The notes: generated by a model from the letters alone, not told the origin. 64,000 nucleotides of DNA from Candidatus Dojkabacteria bacterium (GCA_014729085.1 WJKM01000008.1:163-64162); one strand, 5' to 3'; shown: positions 4,301 to 52,952, numbered from the stretch's first letter. Numbers and translations are program-made.

Positions 4301-5143
4301 ATGTATATTACAATAGATGTTGGAGGAACAAATTCAAGAATTACCTCATTTGAGTCATTAACCAATCCTGAAATTGGAGAGATAATAAGTTTTAAAAATG
4401 AAGATAGTTATAATTCGGACATGACAAAGATTATTAAGGCAATAGAGCAAATTGGGGGTTCAGGAGTAGATAAGATTGGAATATGTGTCCCGGCAGTTAT
4501 TGATAAGAAGAAGGAAAAAATCATTTCATGCAGTAATTTGATGGATTGGATAAATAAACCTATTAGAAATGATTTAATCCAGCGTTTTAATTGTCCTGTT
4601 TTTTTAGAAAATGATGCAGTAGCATCTGCTTTAGCGGAAGCTTATTTTGGATATGGAAAAAGAAAAGATTTTATACTGGTAATTTGGGGCACTGGAATTG
4701 GAGGCACAGCTGTAAAATTTTTCAAGGGAAATCCTTTAGTTGAACCATTTGAACCCGGGCATCATATATTAGATTTCGATGGTCCTGAGTGTACATGTGG
4801 TCAAAAAGGATGTATACAACTGAGTTGTGGCGGTTCTGGAATTCAATATACTTTTAAGAAAACAGCCGAAAATTTAAATGAGAAAGAATGGACCCTTGTA
4901 CTTAGAGATTTTGCTCATTGCCTTATGAATATTATCATGATGCGTCCTACGAATTTAATTATATTAGGTGGAGGTATAGCAATTAATCAATTTTCAAGAA
5001 TAAATAAACTAAAAAAAATACTTGAGGAAAAGTTAACTGTTTATCCTGTTCCTGAAATCAAGATATCAAAGTTAAGAGAAAATTTAGGGTTATTCGGTTC
5101 ATTAGCATTGATAAATTTAAATATTGAAAAGAAACATGTTTAA
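4301..5143 (+). CDS. ROK-family sugar kinase (glucokinase-like)
   Basis: N-terminal ITIDVGGTNSRI ATP-binding motif and the ROK zinc motif GHHILDFDGPECTCGQKGCIQ. Confidence 0.75.
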   Translation: MYITIDVGGTNSRITSFESLTNPEIGEIISFKNEDSYNSDMTKIIKAIEQIGGSGVDKIGICVPAVIDKKKEKIISCSNLMDWINKPIRNDLIQRFNCPVFLENDAVASALAEAYFGYGKRKDFILVIWGTGIGGTAVKFFKGNPLVEPFEPGHHILDFDGPECTCGQKGCIQLSCGGSGIQYTFKKTAENLNEKEWTLVLRDFAHCLMNIIMMRPTNLIILGGGIAINQFSRINKLKKILEEKLTVYPVPEIKISKLRENLGLFGSLALINLNIEKKHV

Positions 5144-8334: not shown

Positions 8335-9132
8335 TTATTTTACGTATCGGTCTAGAATATATTTATGGGCTTGAATTTCTTCTTTATTGTCTAAAGGTTC
8401 AAGTTTAATACTTCTATCATTATATTTTCTTACTAATGCAAGCCATATCAAATAATCTGCAAAGTGCGGATTTTTCGGAAGAAAGGAGCCGTGCATATAG
8501 CTTCCAAATACATTTCTATATCTGGCACCTTCATATTTTGCCGAATAATTATTACCAAAGCCTTTGATTGTATTTGCAAGAGGCTTAACTTTGTCACTTG
8601 TGAAATAAGTTTGTCCCCAATGATTTTCAAATCCAACTAGAGTATGTAAAATTTTTATGTCCTTAGTATAGATTTTTTTTATTTCGTTATATATATCATG
8701 GTCTAATTCAGCAATTAGATTTCCTATACATCTGTTTTTTACTTCTTTTCCAGGCGCTTTAGTTTCTATATCTATTATGCCAAGTCCTTTTGTGTTTTTG
8801 CCATCCCCCATTAAAAAAGAATGTCCTATAAGTTGATACCCTCCGCAAACACCTAGTAATACTGTATTATTTTCAATATCTTCTTGAATAGTCTTGTATT
8901 TGGTTTTATGAAAGTCGTCAACTATTAGAATTTGGTCATTATCTTGTCCTCCCCCAATGAAATATATGTCTGTTTTTGATGGTTCTATTTTATCTTCTAA
9001 ACCCAGATTATTTATTTGAAAGTCAATCCCATGCCATTCACACCTTCGTTCTAAACATATAATATTTCCGATATCACCATAGAGATTTAGGTGTTTAGGA
9101 TAGAGATGTGCGATTGTTAAATTCAAGTTCAT
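8335..9132 (-). CDS. gatD: CobB/CobQ-type glutamine amidotransferase, lipid II isoglutaminyl synthase subunit GatD
   Basis: GATase1 nucleophile motif LLGVCGGYQLIGH and catalytic His in YMHGSFLP. It lies directly downstream of the MurT-like gene. Confidence 0.7.
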   Translation of the reverse strand: MNLNLTIAHLYPKHLNLYGDIGNIICLERRCEWHGIDFQINNLGLEDKIEPSKTDIYFIGGGQDNDQILIVDDFHKTKYKTIQEDIENNTVLLGVCGGYQLIGHSFLMGDGKNTKGLGIIDIETKAPGKEVKNRCIGNLIAELDHDIYNEIKKIYTKDIKILHTLVGFENHWGQTYFTSDKVKPLANTIKGFGNNYSAKYEGARYRNVFGSYMHGSFLPKNPHFADYLIWLALVRKYNDRSIKLEPLDNKEEIQAHKYILDRYVK

Positions 9133-9209
9133 GTTTTTAGATTAAAAGACGTAAAGCTATAAATTTTAAATAATGAAGCACATATATATTTTAATTGTTG
9201 TCGGGTAAG

Positions 9210-10514
9210 TTATTCCAGTTTTTTACCGAGTAATTTTCTAAACTTAAGCATGGCTGTATAAGTAGGCAATACAAAAATTGTGTCATTATTATTTGCATTA
9301 TTAAAGGATTTTTCTATACATTTGTTAATATCTTCATCTAGAAAATATTCGGAATATTCATTTAGAGCATATTTAAGCCTTACCTGTAAATCCTTTGCTC
9401 GTGTACCGCCTAAAATCATCCACGTTATATCAGATTTATTTAATAACTCAAATCTAGCATCCCATATCCAAGAAATATCTTTCCCATCAGCTGTGTTGTC
9501 ATTTAAAAGTAAAATCAGTTTTAAATTCTTAACACTTCGAATCAAATCAAGATTAAGACTATAACCCGCAGGGTTCTTGACAAGAAGCATTCTAAAATTT
9601 ACTGTTTTTTCTTTATCCTTTTTAGTAATTAGTTCCCCTCGTCCGAATGCCGGATTAAATTTATTTATTCCTTTCTTTATAATATTATTTTTAATGTCAA
9701 GCAGTTTTGAAACAGTGATTGCAATAAGAACATTATAAACATGAAAATATCCGTATGCATTTAAAGTTTGAGTGTCAAATTTTATTTGTTTGTTATTGAT
9801 TTTGCCTAAAACTTCAAATTCTGAAGTAAGATTAGGTGTAACTTTTAGATTTTTTGCTTTTATATAATTTGGTACTTTGGATTTTTGTTTTGTTCTTTCT
9901 CCCTCGTACGGTAGTTCTTTAGAGAATTGATCTGGTAACGAAACATAATATGTATCATTAGGTAGTTTTTTTGTTAACTGTGAAGTTCGGGGATCGTCAT
10001 AATTTAAAATTATTTTTGCATTCGGACATTGTTCGATACCCTTTCTAATATATTTTTGTGTAATGTCTACTTCTCCATAGGCATCTAATTGATCTCTATA
10101 TAGATTTGTAACGGCAATAATCTTAGGATTTAGAACTTTGGCTATTTTTGGTAAAGTACCCTCCTCTATTTCAAAAACAGCATGTGTGCAATCAATTTTT
10201 CCAGTCAAACTGCATTGTTTTAAGATCTCTGAAAGTATTCCTCTACTTAGATTTGCACCTGCAGAATTTATAATGATATTTATGTCCGCTTCCTTGAAAA
10301 TTGAATTTAAAAGGGTTTGCGTTGTTGTTTTTCCATTTGTCCCAGTAATAATAATAATGTTTGGAATTTGACTTACTAGTTTTTGTAAAGTCCTGGGAAA
10401 ATATTTTTCTATAATTCTACCAGGTAAAGCTGTTCCGGAGCCTTCACCGGTGACTTTAAGAAACCAAGTAAGTATTTTCGAAAAGATTATTATAGGTATT
10501 AGTGTTAAGTACAT
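9210..10514 (-). CDS. murT: Mur-ligase-family lipid II isoglutaminyl synthase subunit MurT
   Basis: Mur ligase P-loop ITGTNGKTTTQTLL, followed by a C-terminal DUF1727-like region. It is paired with gatD. Confidence 0.7.
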   Translation of the reverse strand: MYLTLIPIIIFSKILTWFLKVTGEGSGTALPGRIIEKYFPRTLQKLVSQIPNIIIITGTNGKTTTQTLLNSIFKEADINIIINSAGANLSRGILSEILKQCSLTGKIDCTHAVFEIEEGTLPKIAKVLNPKIIAVTNLYRDQLDAYGEVDITQKYIRKGIEQCPNAKIILNYDDPRTSQLTKKLPNDTYYVSLPDQFSKELPYEGERTKQKSKVPNYIKAKNLKVTPNLTSEFEVLGKINNKQIKFDTQTLNAYGYFHVYNVLIAITVSKLLDIKNNIIKKGINKFNPAFGRGELITKKDKEKTVNFRMLLVKNPAGYSLNLDLIRSVKNLKLILLLNDNTADGKDISWIWDARFELLNKSDITWMILGGTRAKDLQVRLKYALNEYSEYFLDEDINKCIEKSFNNANNNDTIFVLPTYTAMLKFRKLLGKKLE

Positions 10515-10616: not shown

Positions 10617-11699
10617 TTATTCGTTTATGGTTGTAAAATTGATAGTAGGTGTAATGCTATCGGGAACCTCTTTACAGTATAAAGTTTCGGCAACTTCGAA
10701 TCCAGGCCTATAATTTAAATAATTCCTCCATTCTGCTGCTTCTCTTACAAATTCACAACGATTTTCGGGATTGCATAAATCATTTGTAATTAAATTTGAA
10801 GGTCCCAAAGCTCTCATATCTTCTTCGGTCAAGTAGCATAGTGTATGAAAATCAATTAATCCGTTTTCTGCAGTTATAAGTTCTTCATTTAAAACAACAG
10901 TTGCTAAGCCTAGTAATTCTTGCAATTGTGCATCTGAAAAAGTTTCGGAGTTTATTAGTACTTCTGTTTGGTCTGGTAACAAATTTTCAATATAGGATTG
11001 AAGTGCATCTGAATTTTCAGTTCCAAGATTTGCTAATGTTGTAAGATAAATTGCAAATAATTTGGCATCTTCTGGATCTTCTAGTGTAAAGGGCCTTAGA
11101 TAACTCTGAAGTTCAGTTTCAAATACTCCTGCGTTCTCTGTTGCTTCCATATATGTTCCGTAGGTTTCTTTAGCGAACGTAGCCGTAATTTCATTGTTTT
11201 CTGTTTCTTCCCAAACCCCTACGTGGTCAAAAATTATTCCTAACGGATCGGAATTAACATCCTCTTCTCCATAGCCAAATGGGGTATAAGTTGCATAACT
11301 TCCTTCTGGATCTAGATATCCGTCCCAATAGACATTATCTGGGAGTTGAGCATCTTCTCTGCCAAGTGCACATTTTGCGAATTCTGCAGTAAGGTCATAA
11401 CTTGGAACTCCAGTGTTTTCTCTATCAGCTATAGTTGTAATTATGTTTAAATATGATGCATCAACATAAGGATTAGAGCAAGGTTCACCTAAATTGGACA
11501 TAAATTCCTCTATTGGGTTAGGTGTTGGAGCCGTTTCTATTTCTACTGGTTCGGGCGATATAGGTGCAGAAGTCGATCTAGAGTCTTGAGTTTCTAATGC
11601 TTCTGAGGTCATAATCCCCTCACCAGCGCAAGCCAATCCTAGGCTAGATAAAAGAATTACCCATAATATTTTATTATCTAATAATTTTTCTTGTTCCAT
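10617..11699 (-). CDS. Secreted hypothetical protein (probable lipoprotein), acidic
   Basis: N-terminus is MEQEKLLDNKILWVILLSSLGLACAGEG, a signal peptide with a lipobox-like LAC. No catalytic motif recognised. Confidence 0.5.
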   Translation of the reverse strand: MEQEKLLDNKILWVILLSSLGLACAGEGIMTSEALETQDSRSTSAPISPEPVEIETAPTPNPIEEFMSNLGEPCSNPYVDASYLNIITTIADRENTGVPSYDLTAEFAKCALGREDAQLPDNVYWDGYLDPEGSYATYTPFGYGEEDVNSDPLGIIFDHVGVWEETENNEITATFAKETYGTYMEATENAGVFETELQSYLRPFTLEDPEDAKLFAIYLTTLANLGTENSDALQSYIENLLPDQTEVLINSETFSDAQLQELLGLATVVLNEELITAENGLIDFHTLCYLTEEDMRALGPSNLITNDLCNPENRCEFVREAAEWRNYLNYRPGFEVAETLYCKEVPDSITPTINFTTINE

Positions 11700-11795
11700 A
11701 GTGTTTATGCTAAATATATCCTTATTATATCTTGGTGGTTTTTATACTTTCAATTTGTTTGCATATTTGTAAACATAGTTTTAATAAGAAATAAA

Positions 11796-11822
11796 AAAGG
11801 GAGCCATTGGCTCCCTTTTAAG
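11796..11822 (-). terminator. Rho-independent terminator for 11838..12656
   Basis: Minus strand reads GGGAGCCAATGGCTCCC (7-bp GC-rich stem, 3-nt loop) followed by TTTTTTATTT. Confidence 0.6.
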
Positions 11823-11837
11823 TGTGAATCTCCTATA

Positions 11838-12656
11838 TTATTTCGTTTTATTTGTTAATGATTTGGTTAAGAAATTACTTAAAGTTTTCATATAGGAGTC
11901 TACCGGATAGTCTTCAGAATCTAATGGGTTTGTTCTTTCTTCTAATTCATCACCATCTTTAAATCCATCTCCGTCGGTATCCGCTAACGTTGGATCAGTA
12001 ATGTATCTGGCCCATGGTACAATATGCCCCCCTGTATGTCCTTCTTCACCATGATTAACCCAAGTTCCTTGTACCATTTTTCTAACCCATTCTACCTCTT
12101 CATTATCATCAATTCTGTCATTATCGCTATCTTTATCTTCTGGATCAGTACCTATTGCAACTTCATATCCATCAGGTAACCCATCTTCGTCAACATCTGG
12201 GTTGTATTCATCGGGATCTTCAGTTCCGATCAGTCCGTCTCTGTCATAATCTTCAGAGCTGGCATTTGGGTTGTTTGGATTAGTTCCTGCACGTAATTCA
12301 TCACCATCACTTACTCCATCCCCGTCACTATCCCATTTCAACGGATCAGTAATATATCTGGCATCTTCAACAAATCTACCGTCTACTGGTGTTCCGTTTA
12401 GTATCTTTTTATCCCAAAGTAATTCATCCCCATCAGTAATTCCATCTCCATCAGTATCAGGGTTTTCAGGATCAGTACCTATTGCAACTTCATATCCATC
12501 ACAAAGTCTGTCGCCATCTGAGTCCCAGTTGTTTGGATCTGGGTCTACCTCATTTAGTAAACCATCTAGATCATGATCAGTCGGCTGATAGGTTGGATCG
12601 TTGGTTGGAATATTTTCTAGTCTCCATTGCCACTGTGGTATTGGTAAATCCTCCAT
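11838..12656 (-). CDS. Thrombospondin type-3-like (TSP3) acidic calcium-binding repeat protein
   Basis: Many DxDxDGxxDxxE repeats ([48 protein letters not shown]). No N-terminal signal peptide in the called ORF. Confidence 0.6.
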
Positions 12657-12802
12657 TGTAATTAAAATTAAAAATTAAACTATGCTTTAATCCTAAATAT
12701 AGATATAATTGTTAGTAAATTAATTAAACTTAATATTATAGGATTATTAGATATATATCTATTCTATAGGTTTTTTTTAAGATCTTAAAATAGTTTGCAA
12801 AA

Positions 12803-13627
12803 ATGCACATAGACGCAATTAAAAATTTTCTTGAAAAGCTTGGACTTTCACAAGATGAAATTAAGATTTATCTAACATTGCTTATAAAAGGAAATTTATC
12901 AGTTTCTTCCATATCTCAAGAAAATAAAATTGAAAGAACAAAAGTTTATAGAATACTGGATAAGTTAATAAGTAAGGGATTTATCAATAAAATAGCCACT
13001 GAACTTGGAGATCTATTTCAGCCGGCTGGTTTTGAGGCTATTAAGTTAGCCGTATTAGCTAGAGAAAAAGAATTAGAGAGTCTTAAAGCGGAATTTTCAA
13101 ATTTTAAAAAGGATATAGAATTAGCTCAGAAAGCAGAAAAGACAATAGGTACAGATGTTAAATTTTATATGGGGAAGAGGGGAATAAAACAGATGGTTTG
13201 GAATGTAACTAAAGCAAATACTGAAATAAAAAAAATATTAAATAAAACGGCAATTAAATTTCTTGGTAAGAACTTCTGGAATGAGTTTCGAAATGCAAAT
13301 AGAATAAACGGACAATCTGCTCGAGCTCTTTACTCCAAGGAATACCTGGATAGTCTAGGTGAATTAAAAGCTGAATATACAGACGAAATGGTTGCACATT
13401 CAATACACCAAACTTACAAGTTTCTTCCCAAAGAAGTATTTGAAATTCGAAATTATGTTTTTCTATACAATGATAAGGTTGCAATCTTTAATTGGAGTCA
13501 AAACGAAATTTATGGAATAGAGATAAAGAGTAGAGATGTTTCTACCATGCTGAATCAAGTTTATGAGATGCTTTGGAATATTGCAGGCGAGGAACATACA
13601 ATCGATAAGATTTTAAAACAAGTATAG
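12803..13627 (+). CDS. TrmB-family transcriptional regulator (paralog 1 of 3)
   Basis: N-terminal wHTH reads IKIYLTLLIKGNLSVSSISQENKIERTKVYRILDKLISKGFINKI. The conserved C-terminus is VAIFNWS...IYGIEI. Confidence 0.65.
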   Translation: MHIDAIKNFLEKLGLSQDEIKIYLTLLIKGNLSVSSISQENKIERTKVYRILDKLISKGFINKIATELGDLFQPAGFEAIKLAVLAREKELESLKAEFSNFKKDIELAQKAEKTIGTDVKFYMGKRGIKQMVWNVTKANTEIKKILNKTAIKFLGKNFWNEFRNANRINGQSARALYSKEYLDSLGELKAEYTDEMVAHSIHQTYKFLPKEVFEIRNYVFLYNDKVAIFNWSQNEIYGIEIKSRDVSTMLNQVYEMLWNIAGEEHTIDKILKQV

Positions 13628-13661
13628 ATTATTTAATCATTATAAATTTAACAATATAAAT

Positions 13662-14489
13662 ATGCACCTAGATAAAGTAAGAAGTTTTCTAGAAAAGTTA
13701 GATTTAACTCATGAGGAAATAAAAATTTATTTAGCTTTGATTAAGCATGGGAATCTTTCCGCATCAGATTTGTCCAAGGAAACTAAGGTAGAAAGAACCA
13801 AAGTTTATCGTTTGTTGGATGATTTAATCGGGAGGGGTTTTGTTAATAAAATTGGGACTGAATCAGGTGATGTATTTCAAGCAGAAGGCGAAGAGTCCGT
13901 TAAATTAATTCTTTTAGAAAAAGAAAGAGAGTTAGAAAATTTAAAAAATTCTTTAGATGCAGTACAAGAAAATTACAAACTTCTTAAATCGGGAAGAGAA
14001 ATCAAAACAGATGTTAGATTCTTTATGGGTAAACGTGGTGTAAAACAAATGGTTTGGAATGTTACGAAAGCTAAATCAGAAGTTCGTAAAATGTTAAATA
14101 AAACTGCTTTAAAATATTTTGGACGAAAGTTTTGGAAGGAATATAAAAAGTCGGTAAAAAAGGGAGGACAACAGCATAAAGCATTATATTCAGAAGATTA
14201 TATCGAAAGTTTAAAAGGATTTAAGATCCAAAGTATTAAGCAGCAGGTTGTATCTCCTGAATATCAAACTTATAAATATATTTCAAAAGAATATCTGGAA
14301 ATTAACGATTATATATTAGTTTATGATAATAAAGTTGCTATTTTTAATTGGAGTGATGTTCATATTTATGGGATTGAGATATTAAGCGAAGGATTTGCTG
14401 CAATGCAGAAGCAGATGTTTGATATCTTATGGAATATGGGAAAAGAAGAACATAAGTTGGATAAAGTTCTAGCTAAAATTGAAGATTAA
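13662..14489 (+). CDS. TrmB-family transcriptional regulator (paralog 2 of 3)
   Basis: Clear paralog of 12803..13627 along the whole length (MHLDKVRSFLEKLDLTHEEIKIYLALIKHGNLSASDLSKETKVERTKVYRLLDDL). Confidence 0.65.
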   Translation: MHLDKVRSFLEKLDLTHEEIKIYLALIKHGNLSASDLSKETKVERTKVYRLLDDLIGRGFVNKIGTESGDVFQAEGEESVKLILLEKERELENLKNSLDAVQENYKLLKSGREIKTDVRFFMGKRGVKQMVWNVTKAKSEVRKMLNKTALKYFGRKFWKEYKKSVKKGGQQHKALYSEDYIESLKGFKIQSIKQQVVSPEYQTYKYISKEYLEINDYILVYDNKVAIFNWSDVHIYGIEILSEGFAAMQKQMFDILWNMGKEEHKLDKVLAKIED

Positions 14490-14543
14490 TAAAAACGAGA
14501 GCTTCAAAAGCTACTTTTTTTATCTATTTTTTCTCAAATATTA

Positions 14544-15083
14544 TTAAAAGCTGTTTGGATCAAGAGGATTTGTTTCATTATTTTTTTCTTCCTTGTCAGA
14601 TTTTCCGTCTCCGTCTGTATCATAGAGAGTTGGATCAGTATATACGTTAAAAATAGGACTTTGATATCTAACTTCGTCTCCATCAGTAATTCCATCTCCA
14701 TCTGTATCTGGATTTGAAGGATCGGTTGGTGAGAAATGTTTCCATATTCTTTCTCCAGCAGAATCGCGCCAACCTAGGTCTATAATACCGAAGTATTCGT
14801 CTTGATTATGTAAACCATCAGCGTCAGGGTCGTCTAGTAAGCCATAGTCAAGATTCCCAAAGTATTTAAGTTCCCATGAATCTTTAAGTCCATCGCCATC
14901 ACTATCAACATTGGCTCTGAAGTTTTCCACTGTGGCAGTCAAATCGGGGGTTGGTAATGGAGTTTCTGTTGGATCTTCAGTAGCTAGGGGAGTTTCAGTA
15001 GTAGCTCCAGTTGTACATCCTGCTATTAATAGTAATGATGCAAGTAAAGCGCTCCCCCATACTAATTTATTTTCCTGTTCCAT
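14544..15083 (-). CDS. Lipoprotein with TSP3-like calcium-binding repeats
   Basis: [26 protein letters not shown] has lipobox IAGC. Acidic repeats [24 protein letters not shown] and [12 protein letters not shown] follow. Confidence 0.6.
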
Positions 15084-15288
15084 AGTAAAAAATATTAAAA
15101 AATTAAATTATTATAAGTCTTATTGGTATATAAACATTCTATAAAGAAAGTTTGTTTTAATAAAACTGTTCACATTATTGTGTACACATGAATTTGCTGG
15201 GCTTGGGTAGTAGATTTGAGGAATTATTTCTTTATAAATTAATCTAGGGTATAATTTGTGATATATAAATATAGTTACACAATGGGAT

Positions 15289-16122
15289 ATGCATATAAAC
15301 ATTATTACTAGATTTCTAGAAAATTTAGATTTATCTAAGGAAGAAATCGAGGTATATGTTACCTTGCTTGATAATCCAGATATTTCTATTTCAGATTTAT
15401 CCCATGAACTAAGTATTAATAGATCAAAAGTATATAGAACACTGGATAGCCTTATTAATAAAGGATATGTGAATAAAGTATCATCGGAAAGTAAGGATTT
15501 ATTTAAAGCCAGAGGTTTTGAGTGTATAAAGCAGGCAGTATATGAAAAAGAAAAAGAGGTCGAAGCAATGAAAGAAGAATTAAACAAGATTGAACAGAAT
15601 TTTCAGTTGTTCGGATCAGGGGCAGATTTAAATATAGATGTAAAATTTTACCAGGGAAAACGGGGTATAAAACAGATGTATTGGAATGTCGCTAAATCCA
15701 AAACTGAAGTAAAAAAAATTTTGAATAAATCAGCTATTGGTTTTTTAGGAAGGCAGTATTGGGAAGATATGGTAAAGGAGCAAAAGTTAAATCAAACACA
15801 AATAAGGGTATTGTATTCCGAGAGTTTTTATAATTCAATAAAAAAAATAGATAAACAAAATTTCCGAAATTACTTTGCTCCTCCTAGCTTACAGACATAT
15901 AAATTTCTTCCAGAAGAAGTATTCAAGATAGAGAATTACTTCATATTATATGAAAATAGGACTACCGTGTTTAATTGGCATGAGAGAAGCATTTATGGGA
16001 TAGAAATTTTAAATCCGGAAGTTGCATCAATGTTATCGCAGATGTTCGACATCTTATGGAATATGGGAGGTAAGGAACATACAATTGAAGATTTGGAAAA
16101 AAGAATACTTCAAGAAAATTAG
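15289..16122 (+). CDS. TrmB-family transcriptional regulator (paralog 3 of 3)
   Basis: Paralog of the two upstream TrmB-like genes (EIEVYVTLLDNPDISISDLSHELSINRSKVYRTLDSLINKGYV). Confidence 0.65.
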   Translation: MHINIITRFLENLDLSKEEIEVYVTLLDNPDISISDLSHELSINRSKVYRTLDSLINKGYVNKVSSESKDLFKARGFECIKQAVYEKEKEVEAMKEELNKIEQNFQLFGSGADLNIDVKFYQGKRGIKQMYWNVAKSKTEVKKILNKSAIGFLGRQYWEDMVKEQKLNQTQIRVLYSESFYNSIKKIDKQNFRNYFAPPSLQTYKFLPEEVFKIENYFILYENRTTVFNWHERSIYGIEILNPEVASMLSQMFDILWNMGGKEHTIEDLEKRILQEN

Positions 16123-52880: not shown

Positions 52881-52952
52881 AGCTGGCTATGAGATTTGAA
52901 CTCATAACCTTTCCCTTACGAAGGGAATGCTCTACCATTGAGCTAAGCCAGC
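52881..52952 (-). tRNA. tRNA-Thr (anticodon CGU)
   Basis: Minus strand: GCTGGCT-TA-GCTC-AATGGTA-GAGC-A-TTCCC-TTCGTAA-GGGAA-AGGTT-ATGAG-TTCAAAT-CTCAT-AGCCAGC-T. All four stems pair perfectly. The T-loop is TTCAAAT and the anticodon loop has CGT at positions 34-36. No CCA is encoded. Confidence 0.8.

Follow-up and report, generated by a model that had tools for sequence, protein, structure and literature searches.

TrmB regulators are best known as sugar-responsive regulators in archaea. TrmB and TrmBL2 have a DNA-binding domain, a dimerisation helix and a first C-terminal domain in common, and an extra sugar-binding domain is present only in TrmB and TrmBL1 (PMC4877046). Six of the seven sugar contacts of TrmB (N305, G320, M321, V324, I325 and E326) are located in this second subdomain, a C-terminal beta-barrel of ~70-80 aa which is found only in TrmB/TrmBL1 (Tgr; 3qph) (PMC4158304). 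TrmBL2 (PF0496/TK0471; PDB 5bpd, 5box and 5bqt) and TrmBL3 of the Thermococcales have no sugar subdomain and are ~264 aa long. The present analysis concerns three related genes, here named A, B and C, in a 64,000-nt window (the whole stretch of DNA analysed, part of a 64.5-kb contig) from Candidatus Dojkabacteria, a Candidate Phyla Radiation (CPR) bacterium. To our knowledge, CPR bacteria have very few recognisable transcription factors. An earlier note, made from the sequence alone, described the three genes as TrmB-like regulators that may respond to sugars and control two adjacent genes with TSP3 calcium-binding repeats (TSP3-1 and TSP3-2). The gene products are very probably short-form DNA-binding proteins of the TrmB superfamily, built like TrmBL2. 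The locus contains the following features, with the winged helix-turn-helix abbreviated as wHTH, phospholipase D as PLD and the isoelectric point as pI.

12803-13627, + strand: paralog A, 274 aa; TrmB-type wHTH (aa 10-80), long helix (aa 77-114) and PLD-like alpha/beta domain (aa 118-274); PF01978 E 4.5e-17 and AlphaFold2 model
13662-14489, + strand: paralog B, 275 aa, 34 bp 3' of A; PF01978 E 7.6e-16
15289-16122, + strand: paralog C, 277 aa, divergent from the TSP3 lipoprotein gene; PF01978 E 5e-15
11838-12656, - strand: TSP3-1, 272 aa, pI 4.05, five TSP3 repeats, without a signal peptide; divergent from A; PF18884 E 3e-25
14544-15083, - strand: TSP3-2 lipoprotein, 179 aa, pI 4.05, LIAGC lipobox signal; convergent with B and divergent from C; PF18884 E 3.4e-13
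12657-12802, no strand: divergent promoter region between TSP3-1 and A, with two perfect palindromes (candidate operators)
15084-15288, no strand: divergent promoter region between TSP3-2 and C, with TATAAT at 15250-15255 and a candidate dyad at 15167-15186

The five open reading frames (ORFs) are present with the coordinates and strands first described for them, including the 34-bp gap between A and B and the convergent TSP3-repeat lipoprotein gene that follows. The three ~275-aa proteins are paralogs as proposed, since they align over their full length with pairwise identities of 50.4% (A-B), 46.4% (A-C) and 44.3% (B-C) and E values of 1e-93 to 1e-105. A tblastn search of the window found no fourth copy. 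The TrmB-type wHTH assignment is upheld by the hidden Markov model (HMM) check, in which the three paralogs score 62.1, 58.2 and 55.5 bits against PF01978 (Pfam cutoff 25.6). The MarR HMM is mostly below its cutoff; only C is just above it (25.4 vs 24.6 bits), compared with 55-62 bits for TrmB. The conserved VAIFNWS...IYGIE block reported earlier occurs in A and B, but C reads TTVFNWH...IYGIE. The description of the genome as small and AT-rich fits Candidatus Dojkabacteria and a window GC of ~0.31.

The C-terminal part of the paralogs had been called sensor-like. Searches of Pfam and NCBIfam gave no match for residues 115-275. An AlphaFold2 model built on an alignment of 12 family sequences (mean predicted local distance difference test score 86.9) consists of the wHTH, a helix at 77-114 and an alpha/beta domain at 118-274. 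In a Foldseek search of the PDB with the whole chain, TrmBL2 5bpd ranks first (E 1.5e-13, 274 columns, 16-17% identity) and TrmB 3qph second (E 9e-8). The family profile (1-256) aligns end to end with TrmBL2 1-263 (E 3e-6), but only profile positions 5-104 align with TrmB, to its residues 6-105. Like TrmBL2 and TrmBL3, the paralogs have an extended wHTH, a long amphipathic dimerisation helix and one PLD-like C-terminal domain within a similar length (274-277 aa). With TrmB/TrmBL1 they have in common a homologous wHTH, the dimerisation helix and a domain that corresponds to the PLD-like first subdomain of the effector-binding domain. The beta-barrel sugar-contact subdomain is absent from A, B and C, because the chains end at 274-277 aa, before there is room for such a domain.

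The C-terminal domain alone matches Nuc 1byr (template modelling (TM) score 0.67), NucT and Zucchini. These proteins (1byr, 6ehi and 4ggj) have the same fold as aa 118-274 of the paralogs, with target-normalised TM scores of 0.53-0.67 and only 9-11% identity. The HxK(x)4D catalytic (HKD) motif is missing: none of the three paralogs contains an HxK, and an alignment of 236 family members has no conserved His or Lys. Therefore, the domain is not expected to be an enzyme, and the sensor-like C-terminus is, as judged from sequence and model, a single, catalytically dead PLD/Nuc-like domain. Single PLD-fold domains such as Nuc work in pairs. TrmBL2 assembles as tetramers (PMC4877046), and these two points together favor an oligomerisation role. 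By analogy, the PLD-like domain would help the proteins to oligomerise, bind a small ligand or both, and it may also pair with PLD-like partner proteins; it would be neither an enzyme nor a sugar pocket.

Sequence conservation among the three paralogs is highest in the recognition helix (64-79%), intermediate in the PLD-like domain (46-49%) and lowest in the dimerisation helix (32-35%). The low value for the dimerisation helix suggests that the dimer interfaces may have been insulated from each other after duplication. The diversified effector specificity of the earlier note may hold; the segment that varies most is this helix and not the C-terminal domain. The recognition helix reads E/N-R-T/S-K-V-Y-R, with R45 and Y49 invariant in the family. 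Y49 is 100% conserved in the 236 members and aligns with Y50 of TrmB 3qph, the recognition-helix residue whose role in P. furiosus TrmB is given in PMC4158304, Table 1. A and B are basic (pI 9.1) and C has a pI of 6.2. A, B and C are mutually closest (44-50%), with no other retrieved sequence above 33%, and the topology is ((A,B),C). Because they are each other's closest relatives, the sequences indicate that the set is a lineage-specific triplication.

An exhaustive profile search over 1.84 billion cluster representatives returned 21,686 proteins with an E value of 1e-3 or lower, of which 2,351 representatives reach 1e-30 or lower. Members are mostly 255-285 aa and match the profile end to end, and those that bear names come from Peregrinibacteria/Peribacteria and Dojkabacteria. 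A profile scan of genome contigs gave one distant locus only, in a Woesearchaeota archaeon. As judged by these profile matches, the family forms an extensive, uncharacterised branch within the TrmB superfamily that is rich in CPR members. We know of no member that has been studied, and the literature search found no paper linking TrmB to CPR. Multi-domain members of 510-1080 aa (P0014, P0015, P0021, P0028 and ~25 others in the top 150 representatives) have one wHTH and dimerisation helix followed by 3-7 tandem PLD-like copies of ~135 aa. These repeats represent, within one polypeptide, the amplification seen in the window at the gene level.

The gene neighborhoods were compared at 17 related loci. 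The typical partner of a family gene is a small-molecule gene (EamA, MFS or APH), which is either transcribed divergently or fused to it. In one subclade, made up of P0007-P0009 and the second copy at each of L004 and L006, an EamA transporter gene either diverges from the family gene or shares an operon with it, sometimes accompanied by an MFS gene. The subclade nearest A, B and C (31-32% identity), referred to below as the sister clade, has another divergent partner, which is an APH-type kinase in L008 and L010 or a free-standing PLD-like protein of ~140 aa in L004, L006 and L011. The small proteins match only profile positions ~120-255 and have no Pfam match; they may be partners or anti-regulators of the full-length proteins. 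P0018 (598 aa) is a family member fused to an APH domain (TrmB wHTH plus APH, E 5.7e-16). Together with the adjacency, the fusion is a Rosetta-stone hint that kinase and regulator are functionally linked in that subclade. A locus often holds two full-length copies (L004, L006 and L011); therefore, paralog clustering is a habit of the family. The positions are as follows.

EamA/DMT (drug/metabolite transporter) pairing, P0007-P0009-like: L002 3220-4962; L003; L005 1-1139; L004 5176-6900; L006 2808-4554
APH-type phosphotransferase divergent to a family gene: L008 5720-6865, - strand; L010 3554-4540, - strand
PLD-like-only proteins of ~140 aa, divergent from a full-length member: L004 7525-7941, - strand; L006 5130-5576, - strand; L011 174-620, - strand

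No EamA homolog was found in the window, and an EamA linkage for A, B and C is rejected on that ground.

A 17-bp palindrome, TGTYCN-N5-NGRACA, is found upstream of the sister-clade genes, with 14 sites compared with 0.27 expected in 113 kb of non-redundant loci. All of them fall on the promoters or start codons of family genes, every family gene of the sister clade has such a site, and the sites are usually paired, 30 or ~65 bp apart. An example of the operator sequence is TGTCCATTTGGTGAACA, and P0003 and P0005 are examples of the sister-clade proteins. The positions of the sites are given below.

TGTYCN-N5-NGRACA sites: L004 7945/8013; L006 5559/5626; L008 6927/6991; L010 4593; L011 634/701
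TGTYCN-N5-NGRACA sites, continued: L012 1781/1811; L013 3292/3322; L014 1796; L015 884

In L006, L008 and L012 the proximal operator starts 1-5 nt past a TATAAT hexamer, which is the geometry of an autorepressor. The palindrome is probably the autoregulatory operator of the sister clade. The strongest case for sequence-specific autoregulators over chromatin proteins comes from its location at the promoters of the family genes themselves, and this evidence concerns relatives at ~31% identity rather than A, B and C.

By analogy with the sister clade, A, B and C would also recognise palindromic operators, located at the promoters of their own genes or of divergent ones. The wHTH recognition helix with the invariant R45 and Y49 would read the DNA, the ~38-residue helix would make the dimer, and the proteins would bind as dimers or, through the PLD-like domain, as dimers of dimers. 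They would then repress their divergent neighbor locally and also regulate themselves. Sequence-specific local autoregulation by A, B and C is suggested by their relatives at slightly better than even chances. The divergent targets here would be the two acidic TSP3 calcium-binding proteins. This part is tentative, and doubtful when taken separately: it is drawn from the position of the two TSP3 genes in the window, each of which lies directly next to a family gene and is divergent from it. A divergent layout is classic for a local regulator and its target. The [TSP3 <- -> regulator] module appears to have been duplicated, followed by the tandem duplication of A and B; the ((A,B),C) topology and the 88-aa module common to both TSP3 proteins fit this order of events. 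Taken as a whole, an account in which A, B and C are tandem-duplicated, short TrmB-type, one-component local autoregulators is considered reasonably probable.

MarR-type repressors are dimeric wHTH proteins that bind palindromic operators over their own or divergent promoters, often beside exporters. The sister clade has the same layout, with EamA/MFS. A, B and C differ from MarR in belonging to another HMM family, in the added PLD-like domain and in dimerisation by a single long helix.

Several results weigh against this account. The window contains no exact TGTYCN-N5-NGRACA site, and a relaxed scan (spacers of 4-11, at most one mismatch) gave 36 matches in the window compared with ~40 expected. 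The sole relaxed match in the locus is the dyad TGTTCACA-TTAT-TGTGTACA at 15167-15186, which has similar half-sites and a spacer three bases too long; with ~0.25 relaxed matches expected in the locus, it is not significant. Shared 10-16-mers between 12657-12802 and 15084-15288 are within the shuffle distribution at best, and the best dyads in the two divergent regions are at chance level. The two candidate palindromes upstream of A and the 15167 dyad do not recur above chance elsewhere in the window. TSP3-like ORFs are present in 0/17 related loci, and no TrmB neighbor was found at 2 loci with TSP3 homologs. Since the TSP3 adjacency is absent in related loci, it is the gene order of a single genome that points to these targets. 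Among solved structures TrmBL2 is the closest, and TrmBL2 is a largely sequence-nonspecific chromatin protein. No ligand or pocket came to light in the present analysis.

Three candidate links were rejected from these data. The sister-clade operator is not accepted in the window, with no exact site, relaxed matches at chance and the wrong spacing at 15167. A shared operator of the two divergent promoters is not used as evidence, as k-mers, dyads and palindromes are all at chance; this comparison covers two promoters only, and the paralogs may have diverged in specificity. A conserved TSP3 linkage is rejected by the neighborhood counts. The earlier proposal that the regulators control the adjacent TSP3 genes is therefore not borne out by the shared-operator search or by the related loci. 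Upstream of A there are two perfect palindromes, TAGATATATATCTA (12748-12761) and TTTTAAGATCTTAAAA (12775-12790), which are candidate operators. Two perfect palindromes of at least 14 bp in 146 bp have a P of ~0.015 in a composition-matched simulation, calculated post hoc, and perfect palindromes across the window number 32 compared with 32.6 expected.

The alternative in which the TSP3 genes are not the targets makes use of several of the same observations. In this view the TSP3 genes would lie beside the regulators simply as a result of local segmental duplication in a variable stretch of surface-protein genes, the targets would be elsewhere, and the signal would be a small metabolite or a xenobiotic, to which the EamA, MFS and APH partners of the relatives point. 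In the 17 loci the family genes stand next to transporters and kinases and never next to TSP3, the TSP3 promoters have no common operator, and TSP3-1, which has no signal peptide, may be a decaying copy. However, there is no EamA, MFS or APH gene near the paralogs in the window, and both TSP3 genes in the 64 kb are immediately divergent from family genes. This alternative is unlikely, yet it deserves some weight. A somewhat smaller weight is given to the possibility that A, B and C are nucleoid proteins which coat or bridge DNA with little specificity, as global architectural repressors like TrmBL2/TK0471 in the Thermococcales. TrmBL2 is the best match of the whole chain by structure and by profile, with equal length and domain order; it forms tetramers and filaments and binds DNA both within genes and between them (PMC4158304, PMC4877046). 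The basic pI of A and B and the lack of a specific operator in the window also agree with such a role. On the other hand, the identity to TrmBL2 is only 16-17%, the family is tied to specific neighbors and fusions (EamA and APH), and the sister clade has a precise, defined 17-bp operator. TrmBL2 is a single, highly conserved, abundant and largely nonspecific chromatin protein of hyperthermophilic archaea, unlike the three copies in a CPR bacterium, which have diverged to 44-50% identity and include one with a pI of 6.2.

The sugar-responsive reading of the earlier note, in which TrmB/TrmBL1-type regulators with diversified sugar specificity control the TSP3 surface proteins, is very improbable. 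It draws on the TrmB-type wHTH, on weak matches of the N-terminal part to the NCBIfam equivalogs for TrmB/TrmBL1 (E 1e-5 to 1e-7), on relatives labelled 'sugar-specific transcriptional regulator TrmB', on a ROK-family gene 7.6 kb off (4301-5143) and on the divergent TSP3 arrangement, which is seen twice. The labels are automatic names from the Pfam domain, and the equivalog matches (NF040851, NF047390 and NF047392) reach 19-31 bits against cutoffs of 500-650. The beta-barrel subdomain is missing, with a length of 274-277 aa compared with 338-341 aa and one PLD-like domain as the C-terminus (PMC4158304; PMC4877046). There is no adjacent sugar transporter or glycolytic gene and no other sugar-gene context, the two divergent promoters gave no shared operator, and the Thermococcales glycolytic motif of TrmB/TrmBL1 (TGM, TATCAC-N5-GTGATA) is absent. 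The earlier note is right about the superfamily, but for the function it took the wrong branch of the family as its model. A link to defence systems through the PLD-like domain was also considered and rejected, as PADLOC gave weak wHTH matches to Csa3/CasR only. A bolder version of the local-autoregulator account seems improbable at present. In that version the family would be a distinct bacterial one-component class, in which a dead PLD-fold domain signals by pairing with itself, with free-standing PLD-like partners or as 3-7 repeats, and which was triplicated in this Dojkabacteria genome to switch TSP3 surface proteins. If it were true, the TSP3 proteins under these regulators would mediate cell-surface interactions of an episymbiont.

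The corrected architecture and the sister-clade operator are the most useful by-products of the analysis. The short, TrmBL2-like identity counters the spread of the misleading 'sugar-specific transcriptional regulator' annotation, and the operator offers a concrete starting point for experiments on DNA binding, the first for a family of CPR regulators. The window itself offers something modest, namely three diverged regulators beside two surface-protein genes, with a regulatory link that is positional only.

The two flanking genes do encode TSP3 repeats, as both products are above the PF18884 (TSP3_bac) cutoff of 25 bits: TSP3-1 scores 88.1 bits with 5 repeats and TSP3-2 scores 49.6 bits with 3 repeats. 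Membership in this family suggests that the proteins bind calcium. The 88-aa module common to the two has 44% identity and exceeds the bare repeat. Homologs found for them are generic TSP3/OmpA repeat matches from Bacteroidota and others. The earlier description of both as surface proteins agrees with the N-terminus of TSP3-2, which by eye has a lipoprotein-type signal (MEQEN…LIAGC, with …LLLIAGC), and finds no such signal in TSP3-1. No signal peptide or hydrophobic N-terminus was found in TSP3-1, and an in-frame stop is located 5 codons above its ATG. This is odd for a presumed extracellular calcium-binding repeat protein, and TSP3-1 may be a decaying copy or may be exported by another route. 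A 360-aa putative lipoprotein with a pI of 4.05 and no Pfam or NCBIfam match is encoded at 10617-11699 (-). Its signal (MEQEK…LGLAC, with …LLSSLGLAC; by eye) is akin to that of TSP3-2, and the gene carries a strong promoter-like site of its own (TTGAAA-18-TATAAT, 11753-11724).

Two hairpins were seen in the locus.

11795-11819, - strand: terminator-like hairpin with an 11-bp stem (6 GC) and a T-run, 3' of TSP3-1, which sets TSP3-1 apart from the next lipoprotein gene; terminator scan
14497-14522, no strand: weak 5-bp hairpin, AGCTT/AAGCT, with T-runs on both strands, between the convergent B and TSP3-2; read by eye

The second hairpin is a possible bidirectional terminator; it has only 2 GC pairs and was not picked up by the terminator scanner. 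The scan gave no terminator-like site between A and B, and these two genes are probably co-transcribed. The Rfam scan found nothing in the locus, and its sole match in the window is a tRNA at 52881-52952. An antisense ORF of 155 aa at 15120-15587 (-) overlaps the start of C and the divergent spacer; it is an AT-rich frame and almost certainly spurious.

In the NCBI annotation A (GF362_02175), B and the upstream TSP3 gene are given as 'hypothetical protein' only. The neighbors of the paralogs are the TSP3 proteins, the unassigned lipoprotein, MurT/GatD and DnaE. The ROK-family protein is encoded on the + strand (E 1e-35) and is the sole sugar-related gene near the locus. The GatD-like (PF07685) and MurT (PF08353 plus Mur_ligase_M) genes adjoin each other at 8335-10514 (-); MurT/GatD is the lipid II isoglutamine amidotransferase pair of Gram-positive bacteria.

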